Positions 2,504 to 20,000 of a DNA stretch of 20,000 nt are shown here, piece by piece. The notes beneath the pieces were generated by a model. It did no database searches, had not been told where the DNA came from, and saw nothing but the letters and a program-made list of their open reading frames with translations. The position numbers and the translations under genes are program-made. Each line of letters begins with the position of its first letter. The stretch's first letter is position 1. Source of the DNA: Actinomycetota bacterium (GTDB lineage Bacteria; Actinomycetota; Acidimicrobiia; Spongiisociales; UBA4744); contig JAADGS010000027.1 of the NCBI GenBank assembly GCA_013152275.1, forward strand, positions 178,336-198,335. Reading direction: 5' to 3'.

Positions 2504-3063
2504 TGGCTCGTCTCCACTTCGAGTGGAGGTTCTTCGGAGCCCTGTTCGGCGTCCCCGTACCGTCCACGGTGAGAGACGAGCGCGATCGCTCCGATCATGA
2601 CGGCGAGGAGTGCCACGCCGGCAGATTCGAACACGAGCATCGACGTCCCGAGGAGTTCCTGGCCAAGGGGGACGATGGCCGGCCCGACGATGGCTGCCGG
2701 ACGATCCGGAAACTCGGCGAACAATCCGACGGTTGCCAGGGCCAGGAACGAACCGACGCCAGAGAGGATTGCCGTGCGATGTTGGTGCACCATGAGCATC
2801 GGGTTCAGACCGGCCGGGTTCATCATGAACATCACCATGAAGATCGCCATGATGGTCATTTCCCCGGCCATCATCAGGATGAGGATGAGGCCGAGAAACT
2901 GCGCGTTGAGCGTGACGAGAATGGCTCCGACCGCTACGAACGACGCCATCAACCAGTACGCCGCCCGCACCATCGAGTCGGTCACGAACACGAGGATCGC
3001 CGAGATCACGGCCATCGCCGAGAAGGCCCAGAAGAGCACGTCGGTCGGCCATCCGCCGCTCAC
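2500..3063 (-). CDS. nuoJ: NADH-quinone oxidoreductase subunit J
   Basis: Hydrophobic 187 aa; LNAQFLG, FMVMFM, LGQELL....LVFESAGVALLAVMIGAIAL; GTGA overlap with the nuoH stop. Confidence 0.88.
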   Translation of the reverse strand: MSGGWPTDVLFWAFSAMAVISAILVFVTDSMVRAAYWLMASFVAVGAILVTLNAQFLGLILILMMAGEMTIMAIFMVMFMMNPAGLNPMLMVHQHRTAILSGVGSFLALATVGLFAEFPDRPAAIVGPAIVPLGQELLGTSMLVFESAGVALLAVMIGAIALVSHRGRYGDAEQGSEEPPLEVETSQ

Positions 3064-5269: not shown

Positions 5270-5613
5270 TCGAACCCTCGCTCACGCCAGGCGTACACGA
5301 TTCCTACGACCAGGATGAGGATGAACATCAGCATCTCGACCAGTGAGAGGAGTCCCTCCCGCACGAACACGACTGCCCACGGGTACATGAAGACCATCTC
5401 CATGTCGAAAGCCAGGAAGAGCAACGCCATCGCGTAGTAGCGGGTGTGGAACCGGTTCCATGCGTGGAAATCCGGTTCCACACCTCCGGCGGACGGAACG
5501 CGCTCGGGCGCGGTTGTCAGTACGGGGTTGAGCCGATCACCCACCCATCGGGTGCCGACGACTGCAAGCCCGGCTGCCAGGAACACTACGAGCGCAGCTC
5601 CGAGAGATGCCAT
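5260..5613 (-). CDS. nuoA: NADH-quinone oxidoreductase subunit A
   Basis: RYYAMALLFLAFDMEMVFMYPWAV and YAWRERGFEW motifs; 117 aa. Confidence 0.92.
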   Translation of the reverse strand: MASLGAALVVFLAAGLAVVGTRWVGDRLNPVLTTAPERVPSAGGVEPDFHAWNRFHTRYYAMALLFLAFDMEMVFMYPWAVVFVREGLLSLVEMLMFILILVVGIVYAWRERGFEWA

Positions 5614-5614
5614 G

Positions 5615-5761
5615 TCAGGCGACGTAGTCCTTCGGGTTCTCGTCGAACTCTTCTTTGCAGTCGTTCGAACAGAAGTAGTAGGTCGTCCCTTCGTACGCGC
5701 TCGTGCCGACGGCATCGTCCATCTCAATGGTCATGCCGCAGACCGGGTCTTTCATTTTCAT
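5615..5761 (-). CDS. YHS-domain small metal-binding protein
   Basis: 48 aa MKMKDPVCGM...YEGTTYYFCSNDCKEEFDENP; GAGGAG RBS upstream. Confidence 0.92.
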   Translation of the reverse strand: MKMKDPVCGMTIEMDDAVGTSAYEGTTYYFCSNDCKEEFDENPKDYVA

Positions 5762-6162: not shown

Positions 6163-6855
6163 ATGAGTGACGACCCGAATGTGACGCTGGTGACGTCAGG
6201 CGGACCGGTCGATCGGCTGGTGGGCGCCCCGGTCGTACTCGAGGCGCGCTCGGTGATGAAGAGCTATGTCAGGGGATGGCGGAGGAGGCCGCTCAGGGTC
6301 CTTCGGGGCGCCGATCTGGAACTCCATGCGGGAGAGATCGTGGGTCTCGTGGGAGAGAACGGCTCCGGCAAGTCCACCTTCATGAAGATTCTCGTAGGCG
6401 CGCTCGATCGTGATGGCGGTGAACTCGTCCGAACGGGAACCTTTGGGTACTGCCCGCAAGAGCCTGTCTTGTATGAGCGACTCACCTGTGACGAGCATTT
6501 CGAGTTGTTCGGACACGCCTACGATCTCGATCCCGGAGTCAGCGATCGAAATCGTGACGAGATCTACGAACGGTTCGGATTCGAAGCGTACCGGGACGTT
6601 CTCGTGGAGGAGTTGTCCGGTGGCACCCGCGCCAAGCTGAATCTCGGCGTCGCGCTCCTGGCGGATCCGCAGATACTGTTGCTTGACGAGCCCTATGCGG
6701 GGTTCGACTGGGATACGTACCTGCGTTTCTGGGAGTTGACGGCGGAGCGGCGTGATGCCGGCCGTTCCGTGCTCATTATCAGTCATTTCGTCGCCGACGA
6801 GGGGCGATTCGACCGTATCGTGGAGCTGCGGGACGGTCGTGCGGTCGAGCGATGA
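6163..6855 (+). CDS. ABC transporter ATP-binding protein (exporter type)
   Basis: Walker A GENGSGKST, Q-loop CPQ, signature LSGG, Walker B LLLDEP, ISH. Confidence 0.95.
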   Translation: MSDDPNVTLVTSGGPVDRLVGAPVVLEARSVMKSYVRGWRRRPLRVLRGADLELHAGEIVGLVGENGSGKSTFMKILVGALDRDGGELVRTGTFGYCPQEPVLYERLTCDEHFELFGHAYDLDPGVSDRNRDEIYERFGFEAYRDVLVEELSGGTRAKLNLGVALLADPQILLLDEPYAGFDWDTYLRFWELTAERRDAGRSVLIISHFVADEGRFDRIVELRDGRAVER

Positions 6856-8351
6856 AGGCGACACTGCTTACCCGCCGGTATCTGCTCGAGTATGCGCGCA
6901 GACCGTTGAATCTCGTCCTGCTGCTTCTTGTTCCTCTCGTGTTCGTCGTGCTGGTCTCGGGTGCGCTCGGCGATTTCGCCAAGGTGATTGGTGGGGTTGG
7001 CGATCCTGGCCTGTTGGCAGCTCCGAGTGCCGGATGGGCGGCCGGGTTCCTTGCCGGCGTCGCCGGTTTCTTTCATGTGCTCGGCTCTCGAAATGCCGAC
7101 CGGCGGCTGGCTTCGGCGGGGTTCGGTCCTCGCCGTATCGTGACCGCTCGTCTCATCTCTGGTGTGATTCTGGCGCTCCTGGCTGCCGCATCGGCGCTCG
7201 TGGCGCTAGCGGCGCGTACCGGTCTGGCGGATCCGGTGCGAGCGATCGCGGGTTCGGTCATGTTCGCCGTCATCTACCTTGCCATCGGTGTGGCGGTCGG
7301 CTCGGTGATTCGCAACGAGGTCAACGGGTCGTTGGTCGTGATCTTCGTTTGGATGCTCGACGTGTTCCTCGGTCCGGCCATGGCCGGCGGCGACGTGTGG
7401 GTCACCCGTCTGTTCCCCACGCATTTCGTGACGTTGCTCATGCTCGACGCCCCATCCGGGCATGCGGGGTCGATCGGCGATGTGGGCTGGGCGTTGCTGT
7501 GGACTGTCGGCGCTCTGTTGCTGGCGGCCGTGTTGCTTGCATCCGCGACGAAGACACATCCTTTACACTGGTACCGTGGCGCACGTTGGGCGTCGGTCCG
7601 TCGGGCCTGGGAGGGTCTGCGCTACGGGATGCGCGAGTACCGACGCAACATCGCCATGTGGGTGCTGCTGGCGGTGCTGCCGGTCTTCTTCATCTCTCTC
7701 AGTTTCGTCATCACTCCCGATCAGCCTGCTCCTGTGGAGTTGTCCGAGGGAGGCGTGACCACGGCCCGGTTGATCTCCATGACGGACCTCCACGGCGCGA
7801 TCATGGTCCCGATCACCATCGCATTCTTGGCAGGGTTGGCCGGGCTGTTCGTGATACAGGCGTCTTCGGAGGCTGATCGCCGGCTGGTGATCGCCGGGTT
7901 CCGAACCCGCGAGATCTTGGTGGCGCGGCTCGGAGTCATCGGTCTCGCCGGTCTGATCGCGACCGGGGTGTCCCTGGCGATCACGGCGATCGACTTCACA
8001 CCAGGCTCCTGGATGGGGTTTACCGTCGGTAACGTGCTGGTAGCGGTGACGTACGGGCTGGTGGGGGTGTTGATCGGTTCACTGTTTGGGCGACTTGGAG
8101 GTCTCTATCTGATGTTCCTCCTGCCCTTCATCGATGTTGGCCTCGCACAGAACGTCATGTTCTCCGCCGTTCCTCCTGCCTGGGGTGCGTTCCTGCCGGC
8201 ACGGGGCGCGATGCGCGTGCTCGTCAACGCGGCATTTACGCCGAGCTTCGACCAGATCGGCAATCTGCTGCTCGCTCTCGGCTGGGTGGTAGCCCTCGGA
8301 TTGGTGGCTGCCCTGGTGTTGCGCCGCACGGCCGGGGTCCAGAGCACCTGA
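6852..8351 (+). CDS. ABC-2-type permease with two fused, duplicated membrane domains
   Basis: ATGA overlap with the ATPase; hydrophobic; internal repeat LAGVAGFFHVLGSRNADRRLASAGF / LAGLAGLFVIQASSEADRRLVIAGF. Confidence 0.88.
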   Translation: MKATLLTRRYLLEYARRPLNLVLLLLVPLVFVVLVSGALGDFAKVIGGVGDPGLLAAPSAGWAAGFLAGVAGFFHVLGSRNADRRLASAGFGPRRIVTARLISGVILALLAAASALVALAARTGLADPVRAIAGSVMFAVIYLAIGVAVGSVIRNEVNGSLVVIFVWMLDVFLGPAMAGGDVWVTRLFPTHFVTLLMLDAPSGHAGSIGDVGWALLWTVGALLLAAVLLASATKTHPLHWYRGARWASVRRAWEGLRYGMREYRRNIAMWVLLAVLPVFFISLSFVITPDQPAPVELSEGGVTTARLISMTDLHGAIMVPITIAFLAGLAGLFVIQASSEADRRLVIAGFRTREILVARLGVIGLAGLIATGVSLAITAIDFTPGSWMGFTVGNVLVAVTYGLVGVLIGSLFGRLGGLYLMFLLPFIDVGLAQNVMFSAVPPAWGAFLPARGAMRVLVNAAFTPSFDQIGNLLLALGWVVALGLVAALVLRRTAGVQST

Positions 8352-8609
8352 CCGGCTCCAAAGGCTGGATGAGCGATCCGCGAGGAACGCAGGGCCATAT
8401 CCGACGGTTACGCATTCCGGGCCGTCGGACAAGAGGGAAGCTTCGCGAGCACACTGCCACACGACCGCACCGGGAAGAACGCCGAGGTGGATGGGTGAAC
8501 GTGGAGGGACAAGTGTCGAGAGAAGGTGTGGTTGTCGCGCTTGCTACGGCCGATACCCTCAGACCCGCCGACTGTCATGAGTCCGCTCGCTTTCGGACTT
8601 CACGATTCC

Positions 8610-9113
8610 TCAAGCATTCTCCGTCCCCTCGCATTTCGGGCCTCGCAGTGGTTCATCGATCGTCTCTGGGCCATGAGGAGGCCCCGTGATCACGGACGCG
8701 GTGTCCACCACGACGGCCCCGTCGACGATCTCGACCGCGAAGCGATCCAGGCCTCGTGGGGCGGGGCCTTCTCGCCACTCTCCGACCCGGTTGAACTTCG
8801 AGCCATGACACGGGCATTCGAACTCACCCGAAGAATCACACCACGGCACCCTGCATCCAAGGTGCGGGCACTTCCACCAGAGTGCCACGGTCTCACCTTT
8901 GTCGGTGGTGAGGTATCCGCGCATGGCGTTCACTTCGGTGACGTTGTCCGTCGGCACGCCGTTGGCCGGCCCCGCATTCACTATCTCGCCGAACCCGCCG
9001 GTTTTCGACGGCTTGAAGATGTCCCAGGTCGTCCAGATGCCCGCAACACTCACCAGCCCGAATCCCCACTTCCAGGCCCTCGTCAGCAGCTCTCTCCGGT
9101 TGATCTTGCTCAT
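8610..9113 (-). CDS. Rieske [2Fe-2S] protein with twin-arginine signal/anchor (QcrA/PetC-like, stand-alone)
   Basis: INRRELL N-terminus, CPHLGC and CPCHGS boxes, GPAPRGL. Confidence 0.93.
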   Translation of the reverse strand: MSKINRRELLTRAWKWGFGLVSVAGIWTTWDIFKPSKTGGFGEIVNAGPANGVPTDNVTEVNAMRGYLTTDKGETVALWWKCPHLGCRVPWCDSSGEFECPCHGSKFNRVGEWREGPAPRGLDRFAVEIVDGAVVVDTASVITGPPHGPETIDEPLRGPKCEGTENA

Positions 9114-9372
9114 GATATTTCGTCCTGGTCTCTCCGCCGAGGAGAACCGGCGGTTCCGGGCCGGTGGTCGACAAATCGTAATGGCGTTCTTTTGCCTGCG
9201 CGGCTTCCTCCGCCATGACTGGAGACCGTGCGGTTGCCGGTTGGTCGTTCGATCTGCCCAATGGGGAGCCGGTCTCGGCGACCGGCTCGTGCACCATCTC
9301 CTCGCCTGTTCTTCCGGTTTCTTATCCGTCGGACTTGCTCGTCACCATATCGGTGAGCGGTCCTTACCGTCT

Positions 9373-9404
9373 TTTGTACACCCTCTACCCGAGGGGAATG
9401 TCAA
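9373..9404 (-). promoter_or_regulatory. MerR-type promoter upstream of the Rieske gene
   Basis: Minus strand TTGACA-TTCCCCTCGGGTAGAGGGTG(20 bp)-TACAAA; dyad more degenerate than in the other three. Confidence 0.65.
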
Positions 9405-9424
9405 GGGGTAGAGGGTTCTGATCG

Positions 9425-9456
9425 GTCGCCTACGTCGAGCGATCGGCGTAGGCGAC
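9425..9456. terminator. GC-rich hairpin downstream of the MerR-family gene, possible terminator
   Basis: GTCGCCTACGTCGA-GCGA-TCGGCGTAGGCGAC, 14-bp stem with one imperfect pair; no U-tract. Confidence 0.45.
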
Positions 9457-9584
9457 AGGCGGGGAGGCGGTCTCGTCAAGCGACCGGAGCTTGTTTCCGG
9501 TCGTGTCCAAACACCGTCGCCGGGCCTCGATCGACGTCCGCCGACCTGGGCCATGCCGGTCGTTCGAGTGACCCTCGACGTTGG

Positions 9585-10052
9585 TTACTTCCCGTGGGAG
9601 TGAGGGGTCGGCCGCTTGTGGACATGCCGGGCGGCCGCAGCACCTCTGACCGACTCGTGATGAATGATGGTCTGACAGCGATTGGGGTCGGTGCAGGTCG
9701 ACGGATCGAGGCTACGAGCCTGCTCCGCCAGAATGGCGAGTTGTCGTCGGGTCTTCTTCAAGGCTTTGATGTGCGCATCCAGGTCGTGCATGTGGCGCTC
9801 GAGCAGTTCGAGCACGTGGTGACAGGTCGTTTCACCTCTGTCACGAAGATCGAGAATCGAAGCGATCTCCGTGAGCGTCAGGCCGGTGGCCTGGGCATCC
9901 TTGATGAACAACAGTCGGTCGACGGAGCCTGTGTCGTACATACGGTATCCGTTGGGAGCCCGGTGAGGAGCCGGCAGGAGACCTATGTCTTCGTAGTACC
10001 GAACTGCCTTGGTCGAGACTCCGGCATGCCGGGCGAGTTCTCCGATGGTCAT
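9585..10052 (-). CDS. Heavy-metal-responsive MerR-family transcriptional regulator (CadR/ZntR/CueR-like)
   Basis: MTIGELARHAGVSTKAVRYYEDIGLL..P.R..NGYR.Y HTH; Cys in TCHHV and CTDPNRC; His-rich C-terminal tail. Confidence 0.95.
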   Translation of the reverse strand: MTIGELARHAGVSTKAVRYYEDIGLLPAPHRAPNGYRMYDTGSVDRLLFIKDAQATGLTLTEIASILDLRDRGETTCHHVLELLERHMHDLDAHIKALKKTRRQLAILAEQARSLDPSTCTDPNRCQTIIHHESVRGAAAARHVHKRPTPHSHGK

Positions 10053-10058
10053 GGCACC

Positions 10059-10092
10059 ATCATATCGTCGTGACCCTCCAGTGGGATGGAAG
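10059..10092 (-). promoter_or_regulatory. Probable leaderless promoter of the MerR-family gene with an autoregulatory operator
   Basis: TATGAT -10 lies 6 nt before the ATG with no RBS; operator-like ACCCTCCAGTGGGATGGAAG at about 10073-10092. Confidence 0.55.
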
Positions 10093-10128
10093 AAGCGGTT
10101 TGGGGTGGCCGAATTGGCCGGCGTCTTC

Positions 10129-10160
10129 TTGACATTCTAGTTGACTGGAAGGTGTACGTT
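10129..10160 (+). promoter_or_regulatory. MerR-type promoter divergent from the MerR-family gene
   Basis: TTGACA-TTCTAGTTGACTGGAAGGTG(20 bp)-TACGTT. Confidence 0.85.
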
Positions 10161-10189
10161 GGCGGAAGCAACAGGAAGGAGGTGAAGGG

Positions 10190-10252
10190 ATGAAGCGCTT
10201 CATCGTTCCACGCATCGCTCACTGTTCAGACGGCTGTACCGCCGGATCCTGA
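10190..10252 (+). CDS. 20-aa His/Cys peptide MKRFIVPRIAHCSDGCTAGS, putative metal-binding microprotein
   Basis: Near-perfect SD AAGGAGGTGA upstream; first ORF after the MerR-type promoter; followed by a strong hairpin. Confidence 0.6.
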   Translation: MKRFIVPRIAHCSDGCTAGS

Positions 10253-10271
10253 GCAGGATGTGAAACTGCTT

Positions 10272-10306
10272 GGCGTGGTCGGGGTCCTGCGAATCCCGAC
10301 CACGCC
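10272..10306 (+). terminator. Hairpin after the micropeptide ORF
   Basis: GGCGTGGTCGGG-N11-CCCGACCACGCC, perfect 12-bp stem. Confidence 0.6.
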
Positions 10307-10415
10307 GCCACCGAATCATCTCCTTGCACATGGGGCAGCTTGGCTGGATCTCGTCGGAGTGGCCGCCCTCGAAACCGGCCGGGCAGAGTAGGCCGGGAGA
10401 GCCTCGCGAGGTACG

Positions 10416-10430
10416 CTACGCAACGTAGTA
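10416..10430. promoter_or_regulatory. Putative BlaI/CopY-family operator
   Basis: Palindrome CTACG-CAA-CGTAG(TA) upstream of the blaI-like gene, resembling TAC...GTA operators of this family. Confidence 0.45.
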
Positions 10431-10510
10431 GTGCAGTGTCGAAGGTCCGGCCTCCTCGGGTTCTCGCGGGAGACCGGATGCATATCGGCGAAAAGGGAAG
10501 GAATGGCGGC

Positions 10511-10864
10511 ATGGCCAGAGAACCCATTCTCGAGAATGCCGTGATGCTGATGCTTTGGCGGGAGGAAGGTCCTCTGACGCCGCGTCAAGTGAAGGCTCGG
10601 CTCGATGAGACCCATCCGGTGGCATACACGACGGCGATGACTGTTCTGATGCGACTGTGGAAGAAGGGCCTTCTGCGGCGCTATCGCGTGGGTCGAGCGT
10701 ACGCGTACGCGCCGACCGTGGGACAGGCCCAGCATGCGGCTCAGCGTATGGAAGGGATCCTCAGAGGAGTGAACGAACGGGCGGTCGCGTTGGGCCGGTT
10801 CGTGGAGCAGCTTTCGGCGTCGGACCGGGAGGAGCTGATGCGGATCCTGAGCGCCGATGAGTGA
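10511..10864 (+). CDS. BlaI/MecI/CopY family transcriptional repressor
   Basis: LENAVMLMLW..GPLTPRQV...VAYTTAMTVLMRLWKKGLLRR..VGRAYAY.P winged HTH; start could be 10478. Confidence 0.92.
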   Translation: MAREPILENAVMLMLWREEGPLTPRQVKARLDETHPVAYTTAMTVLMRLWKKGLLRRYRVGRAYAYAPTVGQAQHAAQRMEGILRGVNERAVALGRFVEQLSASDREELMRILSADE

Positions 10865-11792
10865 GATCCTGTTGGTCGCTTCCCTCGTGCTGCTCGGCAC
10901 ACCGTTTCTGCTGAGCCGTTTCGGGCATCGTATCGCCGCAGCCGAGCGCACACGGCTGATGGCCGTATCGCTCGCCGGTGGACTGGTGTTCCTCGAGCTC
11001 GATCTCGTGTTGACGGCCTTGCCGACCGTCCTGCGCTCATTTCGCCTGACAGGTCTCGCCTCTGCGTGTGAACGACTTGTCGGACACGTGTTGGGTGGGG
11101 GGCCGATTGTGGGATGGGTCGTGTTCGCCATGGCTCTGCTCCTGCCGGTATCGGCAATCGTGACGAGCCTGAGATGTCGAACGCGGTATCGTCGTCTGCG
11201 TGCCGATCCGTGGGTCGGGACACATCGGCCATATGGCGAGCATGAGCTGGTCGTGCTGCCTTCGGCGGAGATGGTCGCGATCAGTGTTCCCGGCCGGCCC
11301 GGGCAGGTGATTCTCTCGGAAGGTCTGCTCGATACTCTGGCACCGGCAGAGCTGGATGCGGTGCTGCGGCACGAGGGGGCACACCTCGATCTTCGACACT
11401 CGAGGTATCTTCTGCTCGCCGCCGTCGTGCAGTGCGCCGTGGGATGGCTTCCGACGGTCCGGGGGAGCGTGGGCAGCCTCAGGCTGTCGGTGGAGGAGTG
11501 GGCCGATGCGGTCGCAGTTCGAGATCTGGGCACCAGCAGACCCGTCGCAGATGCTTTGCGCTCGTTGGTCTTTGCCTCGCTCTTTCCACACGCGGCTTCG
11601 TTCTCTGCCGCCGAGACGATTGGTGAACGTCTCGAGGCCCTCGAGCACGGTGAGCCTCGGAAGGCCCCCCTGGCTCGCCTGGCCGCCTATTCGCTGATAG
11701 CGCTGCTGTGGCTGGGGGCAGGCGGATCCGTAGCGACATGGTTGACACATGCCCGTGGATTGGTCGGCATGACGCCGTACTGTCCTCTTTGA
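10857..11792 (+). CDS. M56/M48 (BlaR1-like) membrane zinc metallopeptidase
   Basis: TM segments, ILSEGLL..L...ELDAVLRHEGAH (HExxH), EEWAD; coupled to the BlaI-like gene. Confidence 0.9.
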   Translation: MSEILLVASLVLLGTPFLLSRFGHRIAAAERTRLMAVSLAGGLVFLELDLVLTALPTVLRSFRLTGLASACERLVGHVLGGGPIVGWVVFAMALLLPVSAIVTSLRCRTRYRRLRADPWVGTHRPYGEHELVVLPSAEMVAISVPGRPGQVILSEGLLDTLAPAELDAVLRHEGAHLDLRHSRYLLLAAVVQCAVGWLPTVRGSVGSLRLSVEEWADAVAVRDLGTSRPVADALRSLVFASLFPHAASFSAAETIGERLEALEHGEPRKAPLARLAAYSLIALLWLGAGGSVATWLTHARGLVGMTPYCPL

Positions 11793-11879
11793 GGTTCGGT
11801 GCCGCAGCGGCCAGACGCATCCGCGAGGAGACCGGAAGCCGGACCGTGTTGACGCAACCGACCCGTGGACGGCAAGCCG

Positions 11880-12420
11880 ATTCGCCAAACGTCGATGACG
11901 ACTCGACTAGAGCCGAAGCTGCCGGTTTCGGGTTGGGCCGGCACGCTCCCGGCGGTGGCTGTCTTCGCCGGCCTTCGAATCGACGACCCGGCCCGTCTGG
12001 AGGGGGTGTCGGTGTGGATGAGAAACGCTTCCTCAACGCCCCGTCTACCTATTGCACAACGTCTACGACCCAGATCGTCGACCTGGTGGATCGTCACCGC
12101 CTGTTGGATGTGATCGAAGGCCGTTCCCGTGACGCACTGGACGCCGGGCTCACCGGACGGGGAGACTGCCAGTGTGGTCGTGTCCGCATCGCCACTTTGG
12201 ACCCGGCAGCCGGATACCGCAAAACCTGGTCGATTGCCTCGGCGTCGCCACCCTGATCGTGGATCGTTTCCATGCGATATGCCACTCGAATCGGGCGGGC
12301 GACGAGGTGTGTCATCGAGTCCGGTCACCAAACCTTGGGACATCGGGGTCGCAAGACCGACCCGGCGTATCGGTCGTGACGGGTCCTATCGAACGGAAAG
12401 ATAACGACTCACCGGAGGCC
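11880..12420 (+). pseudogene. ISL3-family transposase remnant (frameshifted, truncated)
   Basis: Motifs spread over several frames: VGVDE, TQIVDL...LLDVIEGRS, LDPAAGY, IVDRFH, LGHRGRKTDP; boundaries approximate. Confidence 0.8.
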
Positions 12421-12746
12421 ATTTCGGACAGATGCGCTCGTCATCCACCGCCAAAGATCCTGACGGCGAGGGTGTTGCCGCTCGGGACGGTCGAACTCGA
12501 AGCGGGTGTCCGCGATGCCGGTCCTCTCCCGGCGGGTCGGTGCTCGGCGGTGGCGATCGAGGACAGAGGCTGCCTGAGCTCATTACTGGGGGCACCGGGG
12601 AGAGGTGACGTCACCGTTCCGCCTGGGATTGGTGTTGCCGCAGGGTGCCGTGTCGCTGCGGTTGGTTCGAACAAACCAGTCGGTGTGGGCGCGGAGCGGT
12701 TCAATCTGCTGATAGTGTTGTTAGTTCCGCTAGCCCACGGGTGGTC

Positions 12747-14696
12747 GTGAGGGTTCGTGTTGCGCTGGTGTTGAGTCTGCTGGTGGCGGTGCAGCTGCTG
12801 CCGGTACCGGGAGGGGCTGCCGTTGAGAGCCCGGTTGTGTCGCGGGTTGGTGGTCGTGTCGATGGTGGTGGGGTTGTTGGTGTGTCGGCCGTGTCGATGC
12901 CCGGCGATCTTCCGGTCGAGGTTCAGGGTGATGCCGGTTCGGCTCCTGTGGATGCTTTCCGACCGAATCCTGAAAGCTTGAAGCCTGGCTGGCGGACCGG
13001 GGTGTTCGAGATTGCTGTCCCTGATGGTGGCGGCGAGGTGCGCGTGTCGGGGTCGCCTGTGCGTCTTGTGGCTCCGGCGGGGTTGGTCCCGAGCGGGTCT
13101 ACGGCTCGTGTCGAGGTCTTTGATCGTGGTGCGGTCGGGAGTGTTTCACCTTTCGGGGCTGCAGTCTCGGTGGGGTTTCGCGACGCTGCGACGCAGTTGT
13201 CGCCGACTGGGCGTTCGGGGTCCTACGGGTGGGCGATCTCGAATCTGGCCTACGGGTGGGAATCGGCCGAGCCGGTACCGGTCATCGCTGGGGCATCCTA
13301 TGAGGTTGGCGGATGGGTGCGTGGCGAGATCGACGCGGCCGAGTCGTTCGGGGCGTGGATCGTTCGTGCGTCGTTCCTCGATGCTGGCGGTGAAGTGACC
13401 GGCCACGTCGATGTGGCCAGAGGCGACCCGGGATCGTTGAGCGACCGGTGGGAACGGGTTGGCGACCAGGTCACAATCCCTGATGGTGTCGTGTCGGTAC
13501 GGGTCGAGTTGTTCAACTACCTCAACGGCGGGTGGGTCGCGTTCGATGACACGACCGTATCGGCGGTCTCGGACGCGTCGGTGTCGACCACCTACGGTTT
13601 CGGTTCCGGTGCGGTGGCCGTCGGTGTCGATGCAGATGTCTCCTACACGTTCGGGGATCATCTCGGGTCGGTGGTAGCCGCGTATCGTCGGTCGGATGGG
13701 CGAGTGTCGCGACGTTTCTTCCTCCCCTACGGGCAGGTCCGTGCGTCCGATACGATGCCGACCGACCGTAGCTTCACCGGTCAACACGCCGACGCTACCG
13801 GCCTGTTGTACCTGCATGCCCGCTACCTGGACCCGACGATCGGCCGGTTCATCCAGCCAGACGTCCTGATCCCGGACGTAGCCGCCCCCCAATCGTTGAA
13901 CCGTTACAGCTACGTACTCGACGACCCGATCAACCACACCGACCCGACCGGACGTCAGGGGTGGCCTGTGGGCGAGCGCGACCCGCAGATCGAGACTCGG
14001 GACTGTAGAGGGTCGGGGGGTTGCGGGTTGCTGGTGGTTGGTGTCCACGGCGGGTTCGGATGGGCCCGGGTGGCGTATATTGGTGCGCTTCGCCGTACCG
14101 CTGTGTCACGGGTAGCCGCCGCCGCCGGGGTGATGGTTGCCGGTGCGGTTGCTGTTGAGGTGGCTCCTGCGTTGGCTGCGCTCGTACCGGACGCGGCCGG
14201 GGCCGTCTCGGCTGCGGTCGATAACGCCCTGATCCGCATCCTTGCGAGGAGCACTGTCGCAACGGCGCAGGCCACAGGCTGGATACGACACCTCCTCGGA
14301 GCCGACACCACCACAATCGAAGAACAAACCCTCGCCACAAACACAGCAGACGACCTGCTGGCCTTGCCCGGCAGACAGGTGGATGCTACTTGGGGTGTGA
14401 ACACGTATCGGCATGGCGGCACGATGACGACGATCGAGCACATCAACTATCGGCATGCCTGGGACACCGGGTTTTCGAATGTGAGCCGTTTCGCCGAAGG
14501 GACTAGCGCTCGCCAGATTCAGGGTCTTGTCGACGACGCGCTGAAGTACGGCACGGTGAGTGGGAATGGGACCAGCGTCCTGTGGGACGCTGGTCGGGCA
14601 CTGGGGGTCGATGCTGCAGGCAACACCGCTACCGGTGTGCAGGTCTACATCCGAGACGGGATCATTCAGACTGCCTTTCCTGTGGGTGTGCCGTAA
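12747..14696 (+). CDS. Short Rhs-repeat-associated-core polymorphic toxin with signal peptide, CBM-like domain and EndoU-like C-terminal toxin
   Basis: Hydrophobic N-terminus (RVRVALVLSLLVAVQLL); DHLGS, PYG, FTGQ..D.TGL.YL.ARYLDPTIGRFIQPD, LNRYSYV.DDPINHTDPTG; tip with EHINYRH..SRF...IQTAFP; start uncertain (12741 or 12747). Confidence 0.88.
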   Translation: MRVRVALVLSLLVAVQLLPVPGGAAVESPVVSRVGGRVDGGGVVGVSAVSMPGDLPVEVQGDAGSAPVDAFRPNPESLKPGWRTGVFEIAVPDGGGEVRVSGSPVRLVAPAGLVPSGSTARVEVFDRGAVGSVSPFGAAVSVGFRDAATQLSPTGRSGSYGWAISNLAYGWESAEPVPVIAGASYEVGGWVRGEIDAAESFGAWIVRASFLDAGGEVTGHVDVARGDPGSLSDRWERVGDQVTIPDGVVSVRVELFNYLNGGWVAFDDTTVSAVSDASVSTTYGFGSGAVAVGVDADVSYTFGDHLGSVVAAYRRSDGRVSRRFFLPYGQVRASDTMPTDRSFTGQHADATGLLYLHARYLDPTIGRFIQPDVLIPDVAAPQSLNRYSYVLDDPINHTDPTGRQGWPVGERDPQIETRDCRGSGGCGLLVVGVHGGFGWARVAYIGALRRTAVSRVAAAAGVMVAGAVAVEVAPALAALVPDAAGAVSAAVDNALIRILARSTVATAQATGWIRHLLGADTTTIEEQTLATNTADDLLALPGRQVDATWGVNTYRHGGTMTTIEHINYRHAWDTGFSNVSRFAEGTSARQIQGLVDDALKYGTVSGNGTSVLWDAGRALGVDAAGNTATGVQVYIRDGIIQTAFPVGVP

Positions 14697-14929
14697 TGGG
14701 TGTCTGTCTGCTGGATCGGTTCTTCGACGAGGAGTGCACGTCATATGTGCGTGATCTGCTGCTGGAAGCAATGGGCCGTAGCTCCGGGACTGAGTACTTC
14801 ACCTTCAATGTGTTCAACGTCCTGATAGATGCTGACCGCGGCGTTGTCACCGTTGAGGACGAATTGGATCCGGCGGCGTCCTGCACTACCTCGCGTGGAT
14901 CCTTCGTGTCGCGTTTGCAGGCGGTCTGA
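14696..14929 (+). CDS. Putative immunity protein 1 (77 aa)
   Basis: TAATG overlap with the toxin stop; small and acidic: MGVCLLDRFFDEEC...FTFNVFNVLID...VEDELD. Confidence 0.75.
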   Translation: MGVCLLDRFFDEECTSYVRDLLLEAMGRSSGTEYFTFNVFNVLIDADRGVVTVEDELDPAASCTTSRGSFVSRLQAV

Positions 14930-14933
14930 GGAC

Positions 14934-15536
14934 ATGCATCGGTACGCCGGTGGAGGTTCGGTCCGGCTGCCTGAGTATGCAGGTCTCTTCCGAGTCCTGG
15001 CTATCTTCGTGTTCATTGCCATCTGGCTTGGCGCTCCTGTTCCGAGTTCCGCTGCTGGACGGGCCACCGATGTTTCGCCGGCGCCCACCTGTGCCTACGA
15101 CGACTGGGCGCCAACTTCCGCACCTACGACGAATGGCGTCGCCAGCCTCGCGGATCAAGTCGTTCGCGGCCCCAGCGAGGTCCAGGGACACCTCTACGAC
15201 GTCTCTGCTAACTCCGTTGCCACAAACGCGCTACTCACACCAGGCCGACTTGCGGATGATGTCGCGGAGGCTGTTGGGGGAGTTGCCAAGCCCGCAACGA
15301 GCGGCACCGGCCAGGTGATCACGATCCCTCAAGGGAACCGCCAGATTGTCATCCGCATCATGGAGGAGGGTGGCGGAAGAACGAACTACTACCGAGTCAG
15401 TGTTGCAGGCAAGGAGGCCCTAACCGTCATGGGCGAGGCTTCGGTGGACAGGGCTCTGACGCACATACCGATCGGTGAGAGCTCTCTCGACGACATTCTT
15501 CGGCTCGTCAACCAACTTGCCGGTGGTGGCGGATGA
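14934..15536 (+). CDS. Cassette toxin 2: signal-like segment + YD/ATN module + putative RNase tip (THIP motif, Ntox30-like)
   Basis: FRVLAIFVFIAIWLGAPVPSSAAG; GHLYD..ATN; tip VIRIM...YYRVS...THIP; start uncertain. Confidence 0.7.
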   Translation: MHRYAGGGSVRLPEYAGLFRVLAIFVFIAIWLGAPVPSSAAGRATDVSPAPTCAYDDWAPTSAPTTNGVASLADQVVRGPSEVQGHLYDVSANSVATNALLTPGRLADDVAEAVGGVAKPATSGTGQVITIPQGNRQIVIRIMEEGGGRTNYYRVSVAGKEALTVMGEASVDRALTHIPIGESSLDDILRLVNQLAGGGG

Positions 15537-15862
15537 CTGTGCTCAACCGGATCTGGGGAGGCCGCCTGACACAGCTACGCGTCGATGCTGCCGTTCACAG
15601 GGTGCGCCTGGTCATATCCACGGTCACTGGCGCTGTGGAGGACGTCTGCGAGATCGTCTGTTCCGAAGTCCGCGAGATGCGCCTGTTCGATGAGAGCATG
15701 TCGGTGTGGGATTATGTTGAGATCACGGCTGCCTCAGCTAGGCCAATGCCCGATGGCTCCATGGTGCTGGAGTTGACGATGTGGACTGAGGAGGCTGGGC
15801 TGATGATCCGATGCGGCGAGATCACAGTTGACGGGGAGGCACTGTCATTCAACGGCTGCTGA
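15533..15862 (+). CDS. Putative immunity protein 2 (109 aa)
   Basis: ATGA overlap with toxin 2; small, acidic, beta-rich pattern. Confidence 0.72.
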   Translation: MTVLNRIWGGRLTQLRVDAAVHRVRLVISTVTGAVEDVCEIVCSEVREMRLFDESMSVWDYVEITAASARPMPDGSMVLELTMWTEEAGLMIRCGEITVDGEALSFNGC

Positions 15863-15873
15863 CATGGCTCAGA

Positions 15874-16410
15874 GTGTTCTTGTTAGGCGTGGTCGCCGCA
15901 GGCATCCTCCTTTTCGACCCGTGGGCTACGGCTGCCGGCGCGAACCCGATCGTCTCTCAGTCACCGGCTCTGGATGCGTGTGGTTACGATGCCCTCACAC
16001 GTTGTGATGCATCTACGACGGTTTCAACGGCTGACCTTGCGGTTCAGCCTGCCACCTCACCCTCCGGTGAGGTGGGATACGTGTACGACTCTCCCCGTTT
16101 CTCCCATGCCACAAACGGGGCAGAGATCCCTGAGGTCATCTACCGAGGAGGAGGTAGGAGCCCCTCGAATCTGACGTTGCGTGAGGGCGAGGAGGCACTG
16201 TCATTCCGGAGCTCGTTGTCAAACCCCTACCCGTCTGGCCGGCAGCCGGTGTTCCGGCCGGGACGCGAGTACATCGGGATCGATACCTCTGGGCTTCCTC
16301 CGGGATCGGTTGTTGTGGACAACGTCCCGCAGGGGCATGTCTCAGTGTTCGTGGATGATGTCGACCTTCTTCGGTCGCTGATCGTTGAGAAGGGTCGGTT
16401 CCCGAAGTGA
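15874..16410 (+). CDS. Cassette toxin 3: signal-like segment + YD/ATN module + ADP-ribosyltransferase-like tip
   Basis: Hydrophobic N-terminus ending ATAAGA; GYVYD..ATN; tip IYRGG..SPSNLT.R...LSF...GHVS, resembling the R-S ART fold; start uncertain. Confidence 0.68.
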   Translation: MFLLGVVAAGILLFDPWATAAGANPIVSQSPALDACGYDALTRCDASTTVSTADLAVQPATSPSGEVGYVYDSPRFSHATNGAEIPEVIYRGGGRSPSNLTLREGEEALSFRSSLSNPYPSGRQPVFRPGREYIGIDTSGLPPGSVVVDNVPQGHVSVFVDDVDLLRSLIVEKGRFPK

Positions 16411-16859
16411 GCGATTCGTCAGACAGTGTTGTCGAGGCAATCCGATGTCTTGTCCGGGTCGCAGAGATCTTCGGCGACTTGGCCTCGTGGCTTCGACAGA
16501 TCGAGGGAGCGACTCGAGTGATGCAGCCGTGTTCCATGACCACGCTTAGGCGACGCGAAGACGAAGTGATCGAGTATGGCATCGGCGACGGGGTCGGGAT
16601 CGACTGGTACGCTGATGTGGAGTTTACCAATGGCAGAGCGCTGAGCTTCGGCCTGGAGCTGAGCTGGGACGGGGGCGAATGGCGGGTGGTGCCCGGGATC
16701 CGGATCACCCATCGAGCGGGCCAAGATGATCTGTTCGACCTTGCCGATCGCTACGCGGTTGACGATGTTGACATGTGCAACTCACTCCTGGGAGCTGCTC
16801 GCGAACTAGCCAGCTTGCGGGATGAAGCGTTGGAGTTGTTCCGGTCATGGTCCGGGTGA
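16407..16859 (+). CDS. Putative immunity protein 3 (150 aa)
   Basis: GTGA overlap with toxin 3; acidic. Confidence 0.72.
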   Translation: MSDSSDSVVEAIRCLVRVAEIFGDLASWLRQIEGATRVMQPCSMTTLRRREDEVIEYGIGDGVGIDWYADVEFTNGRALSFGLELSWDGGEWRVVPGIRITHRAGQDDLFDLADRYAVDDVDMCNSLLGAARELASLRDEALELFRSWSG

Positions 16860-17458
16860 TCCCCTCCCGGGCCTTTGCACACTCTGCCGGGCTCGTCGTT
16901 ATGGCTGCTGCGGTGCTGGGGCTCACGGCCCTTTCCGGATCGGCCTCCGCTGAGGCGCGGCTGGACGTTTGGACGGTTACTCATACGCACGACGACACAG
17001 CGACTGCACCTATGGCTATGACGACTCGCGGCGTCGACGTTGCAGAGCGGCCAGTTCCGTCCTCCTCAGGCGGTCTCGGATTCACCTACGACCCTTCCGG
17101 CCATTCCGATGCCACAAACACAGCAGGGGTGGTTGATGATGCGGCCAATGCTGCGCAAGGTGCTCGGCTGCGAGAGCACTTGAGGCTGTTGGAGCAGTAC
17201 GGTGCGGGTGGGGTACGCGAGTTGGCCGATGGCCGTATCCGCTACTACAGCGAGGTGACGATAGCATCGAAGCCAGGCGAGATGGCTGGTGCGCGTCTGG
17301 TACGGGAGTGGAATCCTGCGACCGGCAACTACCGAACGTGGTACGAGACGCTTGACCACGCCGGCCAGATACGCCAAGTCCATCCATATCAGCCGTACTC
17401 GTCGTACCACTACATGTTCATGTTCGATGAGTTCGGCAACTATGCGGGGCGCGGGTGA
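16847..17458 (+). CDS. Cassette toxin 4: signal-like segment + HD/YD/ATN module + unassigned (possibly nuclease) tip
   Basis: VVMAAAVLGLTALSGSASA; GFTYD..ATN; tip GRIRYY...GEMAG.R.VREWNP.TG..RTWYET.DH.G.IRQV.P; start 16847 or 16856. Confidence 0.72.
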   Translation: MVRVIPSRAFAHSAGLVVMAAAVLGLTALSGSASAEARLDVWTVTHTHDDTATAPMAMTTRGVDVAERPVPSSSGGLGFTYDPSGHSDATNTAGVVDDAANAAQGARLREHLRLLEQYGAGGVRELADGRIRYYSEVTIASKPGEMAGARLVREWNPATGNYRTWYETLDHAGQIRQVHPYQPYSSYHYMFMFDEFGNYAGRG

Positions 17459-17736
17459 TGCGCAACTTGGTACCGTCACCGCCGTCGCAGGCAGATATCC
17501 GGGACATGCTGCGGGGGCTCCTCGCTGGCAGTCTGTCGCGCGAGGAGGTTTCGAGATGGGCTCAGCGGTGGGTCGGGGCGGTAGATCCAGGGATCGACGA
17601 CCCTGTTGTGTGGCGTGCGCTGACACGGCTAGGCGGCGTCGACCTGCGCGCCAGCACTGACGAGTACCTGTACTACGACCCCGACTTTCACTCGTGGCTG
17701 GATGAGGTGGAGGATGCTATCGATCCTGGCGACTAG
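17455..17736 (+). CDS. Putative immunity protein 4 (93 aa)
   Basis: GTGA overlap with toxin 4; helical, acidic (SREEVSRWA...YLY...DF.SWL). Confidence 0.75.
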   Translation: MMRNLVPSPPSQADIRDMLRGLLAGSLSREEVSRWAQRWVGAVDPGIDDPVVWRALTRLGGVDLRASTDEYLYYDPDFHSWLDEVEDAIDPGD

Positions 17737-18331
17737 GAATCCGCGACCTGCAGGTGTTCTCAACCGCTTGATCGGGATCGCGCTTCTCGTCGTCCTTTTC
17801 TTGGTCGTAGCCCCACCTACGATGGCCGGACTCGACTACGACCTCACGGGTCCTGTTGATGGGACTGTGATGGTTTCGGCCACTGACCTGCCTGTTCAGT
17901 CGGTTCCCTTCCCGGGCAGTAATGCCGGACACGTCTACGACTCCCTCCACTATCGACATGCCACAAACGAGACAGCTGGCGTTGGGACAAGCATCGTCAA
18001 GTACGAACCGTATCCACCCGCCGCGACGAGTCCGGGAGGGTTCTGGGGAGCACCTGTTCGGAACAGGCTTCGCCCCGGAACGATCATTTCGCGCTACGGC
18101 GGGGAGGGCGGGACGTACGCCTCACCGGCGGGAACACCGTTCTCTGCCAGAGCGCTCCCGCCAGCGCAAGAAGCACTGGGTGAGAGCCTCTACACAGTCA
18201 CACAGCCGCTCGACGTCGATGCCGGCATCGCCGCCTGGTGGCAAGGAGGTGGCGGAGGGATCCAGTACAGACTTCCGGCCTCGGTGTCGGAACTCCTTGA
18301 GAGCGGATTCCTGAAGAGGCTGGATCTATGA
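17702..18331 (+). CDS. Cassette toxin 5: signal-like segment + YD/ATN module + TNT (tuberculosis necrotizing toxin-like NAD+ glycohydrolase) domain
   Basis: L.PGTIISRYGGEGGTYASPAGTPFSARALPP...Y.V..PL.V.AG..A.W..GGG.QY..P.SV.ELLE.GFL matches the TNT pattern; start uncertain (17702 or 17714). Confidence 0.88.
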   Translation: MRWRMLSILATRNPRPAGVLNRLIGIALLVVLFLVVAPPTMAGLDYDLTGPVDGTVMVSATDLPVQSVPFPGSNAGHVYDSLHYRHATNETAGVGTSIVKYEPYPPAATSPGGFWGAPVRNRLRPGTIISRYGGEGGTYASPAGTPFSARALPPAQEALGESLYTVTQPLDVDAGIAAWWQGGGGGIQYRLPASVSELLESGFLKRLDL

Positions 18332-18570
18332 ACCGCCGCGATCTTCGACGGTGCGCTGAGGCCGAGGGTATTCGAGAGACGGCCTACAGTCTTGAGGGAG
18401 GACTGCCACCCGAGACGTACGTGCTTGCGCTCGAGGAGGGCGGATGGTCCGTCTACTACTCCGAACGCGGCTCACGCGTTGATGAGCGCCACTTCGATAC
18501 AGAGGACGAGGCATGTTCGGACCTGCTGCTTCGACTCGTGGAGGACCCAACCACGCGTGAGCGGCGATGA
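18328..18570 (+). CDS. Putative TNT immunity protein (Imm59-like, 80 aa)
   Basis: ATGA overlap; WSVYYSERG....F.TEDEAC pattern of small proteins found next to TNT toxins. Confidence 0.8.
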   Translation: MNRRDLRRCAEAEGIRETAYSLEGGLPPETYVLALEEGGWSVYYSERGSRVDERHFDTEDEACSDLLLRLVEDPTTRERR

Positions 18571-18706
18571 CGTTCTCTGGTGCCGACAGCGAGCGCATGG
18601 CCACGCTCCGGTGGGTCGGAGCCGTGCCTGCTCCGATCTTCGTGATGAAGGATGACCCTACGCCCTTCTTTGGCCGTACCGATACCTCGGTCGAGGACCA
18701 GACCCC

Positions 18707-19324
18707 ATGATGGCGGCCGTGCGGTCGGGTCGGTCGAGGTGGCAGTCGTGGCCGCTGTTCGTGGCTGTTCTCGTGTTCTCTGTACTGGCTGGGCCGGTGG
18801 CGAATCCTCAGTGGGCGTACGGCTACGACGGGCCTTCCTCGATCTACGACGGCCTGGGCACCGTCGCGTCAGTCGATGGACCCATCGGCGGTAGCCCCGT
18901 GCTTTCGGCGACCGTGGACGCCGATCGGTACTCCGGGTTCATCCACGACTCCTCCGGCTACGCATCTGCCACAAACGGCGCAAGAGGTGTTCGTGGACTG
19001 TCTGGTGCTGGCGACGAATTGGCTCAGGGTGGCGTCTACGCGCTACGTGATCCCGTCACGGGGCAGGTCGTGCGAACGGGACGAACGAGCGATCTGATTC
19101 GGCGTGCAGGTGAGCACCTACGTGATCCGGCGCTGGCCGACTACGAGTTCGAGATCATTGCTCGAACTGACATCTATGCACAGCAGCGAGGGCTTGAACA
19201 GCTCATCCACGAGGCGTACTCGCCTCCTCTGAATCTGATCCGGCCAATCAACCCGACGAATCCGAGTGTGACTACCTACTTGGACGCGGCGGCTGAGTTC
19301 TTGTCGACATACGGAGGCGGCTAG
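18707..19324 (+). CDS. Cassette toxin 6: signal-like segment + YD/HD/ATN module + GIY-YIG (Tox-URI-like) nuclease tip
   Basis: WPLFVAVLVFSVLAG; GFIHD..ATN; tip GGVYALRD...VVRTGRT.DL.RR..EH...RGLEQ...LN.I.PI. Confidence 0.8.
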   Translation: MMAAVRSGRSRWQSWPLFVAVLVFSVLAGPVANPQWAYGYDGPSSIYDGLGTVASVDGPIGGSPVLSATVDADRYSGFIHDSSGYASATNGARGVRGLSGAGDELAQGGVYALRDPVTGQVVRTGRTSDLIRRAGEHLRDPALADYEFEIIARTDIYAQQRGLEQLIHEAYSPPLNLIRPINPTNPSVTTYLDAAAEFLSTYGGG

Positions 19325-19798
19325 ATGACGAAGAAGCTGCCCTATACCAATGGTGATCTTGTTGCCGTGCCGCTCCGCGAGGGGCTTGGATATGCAGTCG
19401 GTCTCATCGTGGCTCATGACGGTCTGGGTGGGGTGATCGGCTACTTCTTCAATCTGCGGTTTGATGCGATTCCGACCGTTGACGCGGCAGGGGCTTGGGG
19501 GCGCTCTGATGTACTGAGGGTGATGCGTTTCGGCGATCTGGGGTTGATCCGGGGCGATTGGGTGGTTCTCGGCGAGCATCCTGAGTGGCGACCTTGTGAT
19601 TGGCCGATTCCTGCCTTTGGGAGACGCGAGCCTACGGGTAGGGCATTCAGGGTCACTTACTCGGCCGAGGATCTTCGCGGGCCAGCCCGCGAGGAACTGA
19701 TCGACGACGATGAGTGCGACCGTCTGCCTCGAGACGCCCTCAGCGGCTCGGGTGCTGTCGAGCGAGTTCTGACCCATCTGCTATCCGTGGACACCTAG
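19325..19798 (+). CDS. Immunity protein, Imm26-like (157 aa)
   Basis: Abuts the toxin 6 stop; Y..GDLVAVPL..G.GYAVGLI, FGDLGLI.G.W.VLG. Confidence 0.8.
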   Translation: MTKKLPYTNGDLVAVPLREGLGYAVGLIVAHDGLGGVIGYFFNLRFDAIPTVDAAGAWGRSDVLRVMRFGDLGLIRGDWVVLGEHPEWRPCDWPIPAFGRREPTGRAFRVTYSAEDLRGPAREELIDDDECDRLPRDALSGSGAVERVLTHLLSVDT

Positions 19799-19800
19799 CC

Positions 19801-20000
19801 ATGACCCCGATTGTCGGAGCTGTCTCTCCAGTGCCACGTCGAGGTCAGAGCTGCGCGGCTTGGTGGACGGTGACGGTGATGCTGCTGAGTTTCGTTTCCC
19901 TGCTCGCAGTTTCTCCCGCGGCCCACGGGTCCAACCAGGCTGCACTTGGGTACTACTACAACGGCTCGATTCCAGACGCTGCGCCTACGACAGTTCCTGC
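19801..20000 (+). CDS. Cassette toxin 7, N-terminal part (runs off the window)
   Basis: Manual translation MTPIVG...WWTVTVMLLSFVSLLAVSPAAHGSNQAALGYYYNGSIPDAAPTTVP: signal-like segment, then YN-x8-TTV in register with cassettes 2 and 3. Confidence 0.72.
   Translation, partial: MTPIVGAVSPVPRRGQSCAAWWTVTVMLLSFVSLLAVSPAAHGSNQAALGYYYNGSIPDAAPTTVP

Follow-up and report, generated by a model that had tools for sequence, protein, structure and literature searches.

The nearest described counterpart of the element reported here is the VENN junction of CdiA. According to Poole et al. (2011, PMC3150448), the homology of orphan toxin modules there extends from junction to junction, and an orphan came to be joined to the main gene through a deletion; these authors proposed that the VENN-encoding sequences recombine with each other. 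For the Rhs toxins, Jackson et al. (2009, PMC2935791) propose displacement of the toxin tip via circular intermediates using retained core fragments as homology, a model limited to closely related cores. The known pre-toxin domains listed by Zhang et al. (2012, PMC3482391) include PT-TG, PT-HINT, PT-VENN and DUF637. The present work concerns a polymorphic-toxin locus, recognised from its open reading frames (ORFs) and their translations, at positions 12645–20000 of a 20,000-nt stretch of DNA from an uncultured actinobacterium (contig JAADGS010000027.1), this whole stretch being called the window below. The locus contains a Rhs-type gene ending in toxin 1, five complete small toxin genes (toxins 2–6), each paired with a downstream immunity gene, and the start only of toxin 7 at the contig end. 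Within each small toxin a signal-like hydrophobic segment is followed by a 44-residue module, the tripeptide ATN and a variable toxin end. The ATN is encoded by the 9-mer GCCACAAAC and we consider it likely that this motif is the point at which toxin ends are exchanged between scaffolds. A first-pass annotation of the same DNA had looked for an att-like site in hexamers within the module; the proposal fails for the hexamers but holds in spirit for the 9-mer, whose codons are invariant and at which contigs change partner.

As at the VENN junction of CdiA, a short peptide with a conserved coding sequence starts the variable toxin end and is common to the main gene and the orphans; by analogy, the ATN junction would be a VENN-like exchange junction. 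The units seen in contigs run from 9-mer to 9-mer, as the CdiA units run from junction to junction, and all 20 junctions compared below are identical over these nine bases. Unlike contact-dependent growth inhibition systems, however, the junction peptide is ATN and not VENN, the host is an actinobacterium, and no CdiA or CdiB families are found among the window proteins. The shared DNA is here the 9-mer plus two isolated positions, and one junction is used by three unrelated scaffolds, namely Rhs, a Sec leader with the 44-residue module, and HINT. The downstream genes also differ from cdiA-CT/cdiI orphans in being complete, with their own start and signal peptide, instead of silent fragments. 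The different phylum, the coreless but complete orphans and the unrelated scaffolds set the locus apart.

The arrangement, with alternative toxin ends and their immunity genes lined up behind a Rhs gene, is that of the Rhs displacement arrays, and a joint that goes back upstream, as a circle or a duplication would give, was seen here. In contrast to those arrays, the orphans carry no core fragment and the junction motif is the only sequence that they have in common with the Rhs gene. Of the features of a Rhs locus, the core with DPxG and the toxin with its immunity gene are present, while the RHS/YD repeat shell and promoterless core-bearing tips are not. Integron cassettes are units bounded by a short conserved core, whose order and partners vary between strains, and excision and re-insertion of this type would explain the joints described below. 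Unlike in integrons, there is no integron-type tyrosine recombinase among the window ORFs or on its contig and no attC-like hairpin, and the core lies in frame within coding sequence and fuses proteins. Like a pre-toxin domain, the 44-residue module is a conserved segment between the trafficking part and the toxin domain with a possible processing site, but it matches none of PT-TG, PT-HINT, PT-VENN and DUF637. PT-TG and PT-HINT do occur alongside an ATN junction in a related genome, G026, and the string 'ATN' is absent from the accessible sections of Zhang et al. (2012, PMC3482391). Literature searches found no published description of the ATN junction or of the module, which is not proof of absence, and no literature pairing a polymorphic toxin with Acidimicrobiia.

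The junction 9-mer

The 9-mer GCCACAAAC was found on the + strand at 14334, inside the Rhs gene, and at 15219, 16108, 17111, 17960 and 18968, inside toxins 2–6. Its Thr is written with the rare ACA codon (9% of Thr codons genome-wide), and of the ATN tripeptides read in frame in the source genome's long ORFs just 2 of 78 are written GCCACAAAC. At junctions found with the protein profile of the module the 9-mer was present in nine cases out of nine (five in the window and one each in genomes G026, G042, G671 and G634). It was also present at both loci found by toxin-end homology (L022 and L023), giving 11 of 11 via protein searches. These loci also hold the 9-mer, in frame as ATN, in four other settings. 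In G026 and G042 it opens the toxin end of the adjacent full-length Rhs genes, and in G026 it also separates a PT-HINT domain from an HNH end. In L022 it comes after a signal peptide alone, with no module, and in L023 and G634 it follows unrelated leaders. The same toxin types stand behind different scaffolds across genomes, always joined at ATN.

Twenty in-frame junctions from seven sources (five genomes in three families of one order, and two metagenome contigs) were aligned. The nine bases were invariant and the flanks variable except at two positions. Position +14, which is the wobble base of codon 2 after ATN, was A in 20/20 junctions even though A, I, L, T, P, E or R may be specified there. 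Position -1 was T in 14/20 junctions, in codons for seven different residues, and the wobble position +11 was free. In the array genes A-ending codons make up 10.5% and T-ending codons 21%. Six metagenome loose ends that follow a 9-mer have A at +14 too. The 9-mer is by these data a real DNA-level element, with the full motif T-GCCACAAAC-N5-A. A weak dyad, TGC-N10-GCA, is visible in the junction logo and was given no weight. The 9-mer was not over-represented genome-wide against a control word in G026, G042, G671 or G634, and the window's own genome holds 22 copies against about 23 expected from length alone. Other close pairs of the 9-mer in G026, G671 and G634 were out of the ATN frame and were therefore dismissed as chance.

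Changes of partner at the junction in metagenome contigs

Contigs of four public metagenome runs labelled hydrothermal vent (X1–X4) were mapped to 12400–20000. The contig pieces broke at the motifs (13208–14342, 14346–15202, 15219–16116, 16108–17969 and 17940–18976), with breaks within 0–8 nt of the 9-mer at all six sites. In X1 (depth 16) and X2 (depth 15.5) a joint led from 14333 to 16108, with nine letters shared, taking the Rhs gene into toxin 3. The opposite joint, from 16119 to 14346, was found in X3, where its shorter side is 122 letters long, and recurs in X1 as a loose end; it takes module 3 into the toxin end of the Rhs gene and crosses in a 5-base match 3–8 nt past the motif. Ten further loose ends lay 0–8 nt from a 9-mer, at 14348, 15219, 15228, 15234, 16116, 17103, 17969 and 18976. 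Some of them lead into toxins absent from the window, one of which resembles the toxin behind the module of G026. The break points recurred in X1, X2 and X3, and in X4 a different partner follows the 9-mer of the Rhs gene. Contigs with joints had depths of 6–16 and the reference pieces depths of 6–39. In these populations no junction is restricted to a single left and a single right partner. Separately, the depth of the X1 contig was about 36, falling to about 17 beyond 17988. No RNA runs holding the locus were listed among the sequencing runs.

Proposed mechanism of exchange

The unit exchanged would consist of a toxin end, its immunity gene and the leader of the next gene, bounded by two motifs. 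Deletion between two motifs would load a downstream toxin onto the Rhs gene, and the reciprocal joint would place the Rhs toxin behind a small-toxin leader. The motif is common in frame to the Rhs gene, the small toxins and a relative's HINT-bearing toxin. We infer that recombination acts on the motif itself, which has presumably been kept by selection for exchangeability. If the ATN motif is the exchange point, a sequence-recognising step carried out by an enzyme encoded elsewhere has a somewhat better than even chance of being involved. Such a site-reading protein is favoured because short homology would explain the nine bases but not the fixed +14 beside a free +11; plain short-homology recombination is nonetheless a serious possibility. 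A more specific proposal, which we put forward tentatively, is that a dedicated recombinase or nuclease reads T-GCCACAAAC-N5-A and excises and inserts the toxin end, immunity gene and next leader in the manner of an integron. If this were true, an in-frame coding att site would let Rhs, Sec leader plus module, and HINT scaffolds share one toxin pool.

Several observations weigh against exchange at the ATN motif. The joints come from contigs and not reads, X1–X3 belong to one study and X4 to another, and X1 is possibly the source sample. On its shorter side, the joint between the Rhs gene and toxin 3 is just 21 letters long. The crossovers of the two joints differ in position, one within the 9-mer and the other 3–8 nt past it, so the joints are not both products of one precise event, and the alternative joints could stem from strains living side by side and not from rearrangement in progress. 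Common descent of the junction copies means that binomial figures overstate their independence, and the copies come from only seven sources. In G026 the second Rhs gene lacks an ATN junction. No recombinase gene was found in the window or next to the G026 and G042 loci, where just an ISL3 fragment and an IS256-type transposase were present, and none of the 13 tyrosine-recombinase (PF00589) and five serine-recombinase matches of the genome lies on the contig of the window. A protein role for the module gains nothing from structure prediction, as an AlphaFold2 model of the module (14-row alignment) had a confidence score (pLDDT) of 56.7 and no secondary structure.

Polymorphic toxin loci presumably diversify through toxin-end swaps, and the crossover in these has usually been inferred from long homology. 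Here it is narrowed to a 9-base in-frame motif at which natural populations show both exchange directions. The locus is therefore a direct test case for whether toxin swapping is targeted or a by-product of homology.

Alternative explanations

The first-pass annotation had interpreted hexamers of fixed spacing in the module, one of them out of frame, as protein-binding boxes of a 132-bp att-like site. The coordinates and spacings on which this was built were all confirmed. Box 1 lies 123 nt before the 9-mer (TACGAC at 15096, TACGAT at 15985, CACGAC at 16988, TACGAC at 17837 and 18845) and box 3 lies 24 nt before it (TACGAC at 15195, 16084, 17087 and 17936, CACGAC at 18944). A middle hexamer stands at +29 from box 1 (TACGAC at 15125 and 16014, TATGAC at 17017, TGTGAT at 17866, none in cassette 6, the toxin 6 copy, and TACGAC at 19986 in cassette 7). 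That the Rhs gene has the 9-mer without the module was also borne out, since the boxes are missing from its site at 14334. The window has 15 copies of TACGAC, 12 of them past position 14900; the enrichment in the array is therefore real.

The interpretation as binding sites fared less well. In the genome and in the array TAC accounts for 76–79% of Tyr codons and GAC for 55–69% of Asp codons, and because these are the majority codons the boxes are the preferred codons of two Tyr-Asp dipeptides and not DNA sites. The middle hexamer does have a different codon offset, as had been claimed, but not a separate meaning: it spans xxT-ACG-ACx, is read in frame as [P/S/M]-Thr-Thr, and Thr-Thr is a protein motif conserved among relatives. 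As DNA, it is TACGAC in one of six non-window copies taken at that offset. Third-position identity in the module is 55%, which is not above the level given by codon bias. In favour of DNA boxes there is the fixed spacing in five copies and a mild excess over codon usage, box 3 being TACGAC in 7/7 copies with Y-D and residue G33 being GGA in 6/10, an excess that we do not lean on as the copies are related and many columns were examined. The attC-like hairpins expected from folding the single-stranded DNA were not found, there being no excess structure in four of five modules on either strand (z +0.3 to +1.8) and no shared hairpin; the module of cassette 3 reached z -5.45 on both strands from a private palindrome. 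Furthermore, no module accompanies the junctions of L022, L023 and the Rhs genes, which work all the same. An att-like site made of these hexamers is thus hardly credible. Cassette 3 alone contains a perfect 10-bp palindrome, CCACCTCACC ... GGTGAGGTGG, at about 16052–16075, and a second stem of 8 bp, CCCCGTTT ... AAACGGGG, at about 16090–16125, which overlaps its 9-mer. Neither stem is present in other cassettes, and both together give the z of -5.45.

The invariance of the codons might serve translation or the mRNA instead, as a rare-codon patch (NNT, ACA, NNA) or RNA motif that slows or regulates translation before the toxin domain, with breakpoints clustering at the domain boundary merely because chimeras stay functional there. 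The site does lie at a protein domain boundary, and a codon -1 that often ends in T, the ACA for Thr and a codon +2 that always ends in A are all minority codons in the genome. A pause, however, needs no invariant GCC and AAC (20/20 each), GCG being about as common, nor would it call for A in particular at +14 and T at -1 where +11 is free. Export timing is not the reason either, because the sites in Rhs genes lie hundreds to thousands of codons into the reading frame, and the contigs break within a few nucleotides of the 9-mer at all six sites. We regard the translational explanation as unlikely. The alternative joints could also be artefactual, arising from chimeric contigs or from unrelated organisms sharing short words, with no exchange at the 9-mer; the use of metagenome contigs and the short side of the joint between the Rhs gene and toxin 3 are consistent with this. 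A 9-base repeat alone, however, cannot branch a 31-mer de Bruijn graph. The same breaks appear in X1, X2 and X3, another partner follows the Rhs 9-mer in X4, which is from another study, and the depths of the contigs with joints compare with those of the reference pieces as given above. The occurrence of the same toxin types behind different scaffolds in other genomes, always at ATN, also argues against an artefact, which is very improbable.

The 44-residue module

The other possibility that the first-pass annotation had left for the module, a new fixed-length domain, stands. The module follows the pattern [Y/H/C]D-x8-TT-x18-G-x2-[Y/H]D-x6 and then ATN, and has no match in Pfam, NCBIfam or the PDB sequences. 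None of 14 module sequences matched a pre-toxin family (PT-TG, PT-HINT and others) at E<=5, nor did the full array proteins at E<=0.1, and the best match in a PDB profile search with the module was an unrelated protein (E 0.085). A search of the ESM Atlas with residues 25–85 of toxin 3 gave no usable match. A profile made from the five copies and searched against 1.84 billion representative proteins gave 17 matches at E<=1e-3. Small proteins that begin with a signal-like segment make up 11 of them, including toxin 6 of the window itself, and the other six are long repeat proteins that match over part of the profile only. ATN is read in all module-profile matches. The database protein P0009 has a HINT domain after its module and ATN.

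The exact spacing [Y/H/C]D-x28-[G/A]-x2-[Y/H]D-x6-ATN was found in nine of the ten non-window proteins with a complete module, the remaining one, P0019, having x29, and x28 is also kept in the module copies of genomes G026 and G042. Strict length is thus a property of the module family, as the first-pass annotation had suspected, and the module is a rare fixed-length protein domain. The spacing reported for the five cassettes is correct, but in cassette 6 MAFFT places a 6-residue deletion and a 6-residue insertion that cancel out. Because of these compensating indels and of a second GYD 21 nt upstream, at 18824, the gapless fit of cassette 6 may be a coincidence. As for function, our guess is that the module is a Sec-exported pro-region or tether ending in a processing site at ATN.

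Two minor features of the module region were noted. In P0005 and P0015 the last 14 residues of the module (G-x-L-Y-D-x6-A-x-N) are spaced like a repeated hairpin motif of the long repeat proteins, …GHLYDSxGxELAxN…, though the match to the module is partial and the module itself has no Pfam match. We take hairpin motifs of this type to resemble the pre-peptidase C-terminal (PPC) domain. Many toxin ends continue beyond ATN as T-A-D-D or x(2-8)-D-D (ATNTADDLL, ATNTADDF, ATNTADDV, ATNTLSDDI, ATNAIDDA), a loose linker motif at the protein level that may be part of a processing site.

Distribution of the module and loci of relatives

The module profile was run on genome samples with 17–34 first-look candidates scored per genome. 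The module proved patchy in distribution, with no matches in 19 other genomes of the same family. Matches were obtained in 3 of 400 other genomes of the class sample, one of them the weak match in G050, in 4 of 400 others of the order sample and in 3 of 201 genomes in the family of G026. The match in G050 (E 6e-4, profile positions 4–36) lacks the YD-x6-ATN motif and was dropped. Searches with the cassette 3 module among genome contigs and with toxin 5 among viral contigs found no related locus, and a search with the Rhs protein among genome contigs gave just two generic Rhs-core matches. Eight of ten clusters of database module proteins come from contigs of 3.8 kb or less and several of the proteins are cut, which fits assemblies breaking at these loci, as the contig of the window itself does.

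In G026 and G042 a full-length Rhs gene, an immunity gene and a module-bearing toxin occur in the same order as in the window. The toxin ends of these relatives are Colicin_E5, or PT-TG/PT-HINT/HNH with a SUFU-type immunity gene (the HNH pair). The Rhs proteins of G026 are 2177 and 3037 residues long and both contain RHS_repeat. At 8509–10209 on the minus strand of locus L012 of G026, a module ORF stops in frame and is followed at once by a 442-residue frame with PT-TG, PT-HINT and HNH. This frame holds a stretch nearly identical to part of the adjacent second Rhs gene (…FDDVTLVRSGTSTNL…), and from its sequence the region looks like a recombination patchwork or a broken gene.

Organisation of the locus

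All of the following features are on the + strand. An ISL3-family transposase fragment (11708–12256; PF01610, E 1.4e-5) lies directly upstream of the Rhs gene and is given for context only. The Rhs-type toxin gene (12645–14696) encodes 683 residues comprising a signal-like N-terminus, the end of the RHS core with DPTGR (TIGR03696 Rhs_assc_core, residues 360–436, E 1e-19), a hydrophobic stretch, the ATN junction and toxin 1; the DPxG core-end motif appears in the translation as '...DDPINHTDPTGR'. The 9-mer in this gene occupies 14334–14342, and it is here that contigs stop at 14342 and resume at 14346 and that the joint from 14333 to 16108 starts. No RHS/YD repeats were found in the protein, which matched no Pfam family, and the gene therefore looks truncated. 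At position 13530, inside the Rhs gene, there is a loose end in X1 and X4, with another sequence upstream of it. Because of this, other strains may carry a longer, perhaps full-length, version, of which the window's copy would be an internal deletion. Putative immunity gene 1 (14696–14929, 77 residues) has a start that overlaps the Rhs stop and no family match, its role being assigned by position.

Toxin 2 (14934–15536) has a signal peptide, a module at 15096–15227, the 9-mer at 15219 and a toxin domain of no family; putative immunity gene 2 (15533–15862), whose start overlaps the toxin 2 stop, has a weak YxiG-like match (E 0.021) below the cut-off. Toxin 3 (15874–16410), the partner of the Rhs gene in joints both ways, is built in the same way with its module at 15985–16116, its 9-mer at 16108 and a toxin domain without family, and is followed by putative immunity gene 3 (16407–16859), also without a family match. 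In toxin 4 (16847–17458) a signal peptide precedes the module (16988–17119), the 9-mer at 17111 and a further toxin domain without family; a loose end lies at 17103, and putative immunity gene 4 spans 17455–17736. Toxin 5 (17702–18331; signal peptide, module 17837–17968, 9-mer at 17960) ends in a TNT-type NAD+ glycohydrolase domain (PF14021 TNT, E 1.9e-24, residues 123–206) and is paired with putative immunity gene 5 (18328–18570). Toxin 6 (18707–19324) has a signal peptide, a rearranged module at 18845–18976, the 9-mer at 18968 and a weak GIY-YIG-like domain (T5orf172 E 0.0021, MUG113 E 0.038, both below the cut-off). Its immunity gene 6 (19325–19798) belongs to the Imm26 family (PF15428, E 1.8e-6, 28.6 bits, above the cut-off). 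The start of toxin 7 (19801–20000) consists of a signal peptide, Y-N at 19957 and APTT at 19986, and stops at the contig end. Apart from the TNT domain, Imm26 and the pairs in the relatives, toxin and immunity genes were paired by their position.

The stops and starts of neighbouring array genes overlap in most cases on the ORF map. The gap at 18570–18707 (about 136 nt), between immunity gene 5 and toxin 6, is the only sizeable one in the array, the other boundaries overlapping or nearly touching. None of the small toxin genes has a Rhs core fragment, and each has its own start codon, signal peptide and 44-residue module. By this anatomy the downstream small toxins are complete genes and not silent fragments, and these 'orphan' toxins are fully equipped and probably expressed. 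They thus add a fully equipped orphan class, and with the module an undescribed leader, to the toxin-delivery parts of a poorly studied lineage of uncultured actinobacteria.

The final 20 kb of the contig make up the window. The assembly has 100 contigs, and none of the others overlaps this end to continue the sequence past 20000; one X1 metagenome contig extends 886 nt beyond it. Upstream of the toxin locus, genes at 9585–11792 for a MerR-family regulator (minus strand) and a BlaI-type repressor with an M48 (BlaR-like) peptidase sit between an ATP-binding cassette (ABC) transporter (6163–8351) and the toxin genes. Six WhiB genes are present in the source genome, in keeping with Actinomycetota. 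NADH-dehydrogenase-type genes flank the locus in the window (282–5727), and Nuo genes are also found beside the Rhs locus of G026 (L027, 10837–11999); from this gene content the position of the locus may be syntenic between the window and G026.

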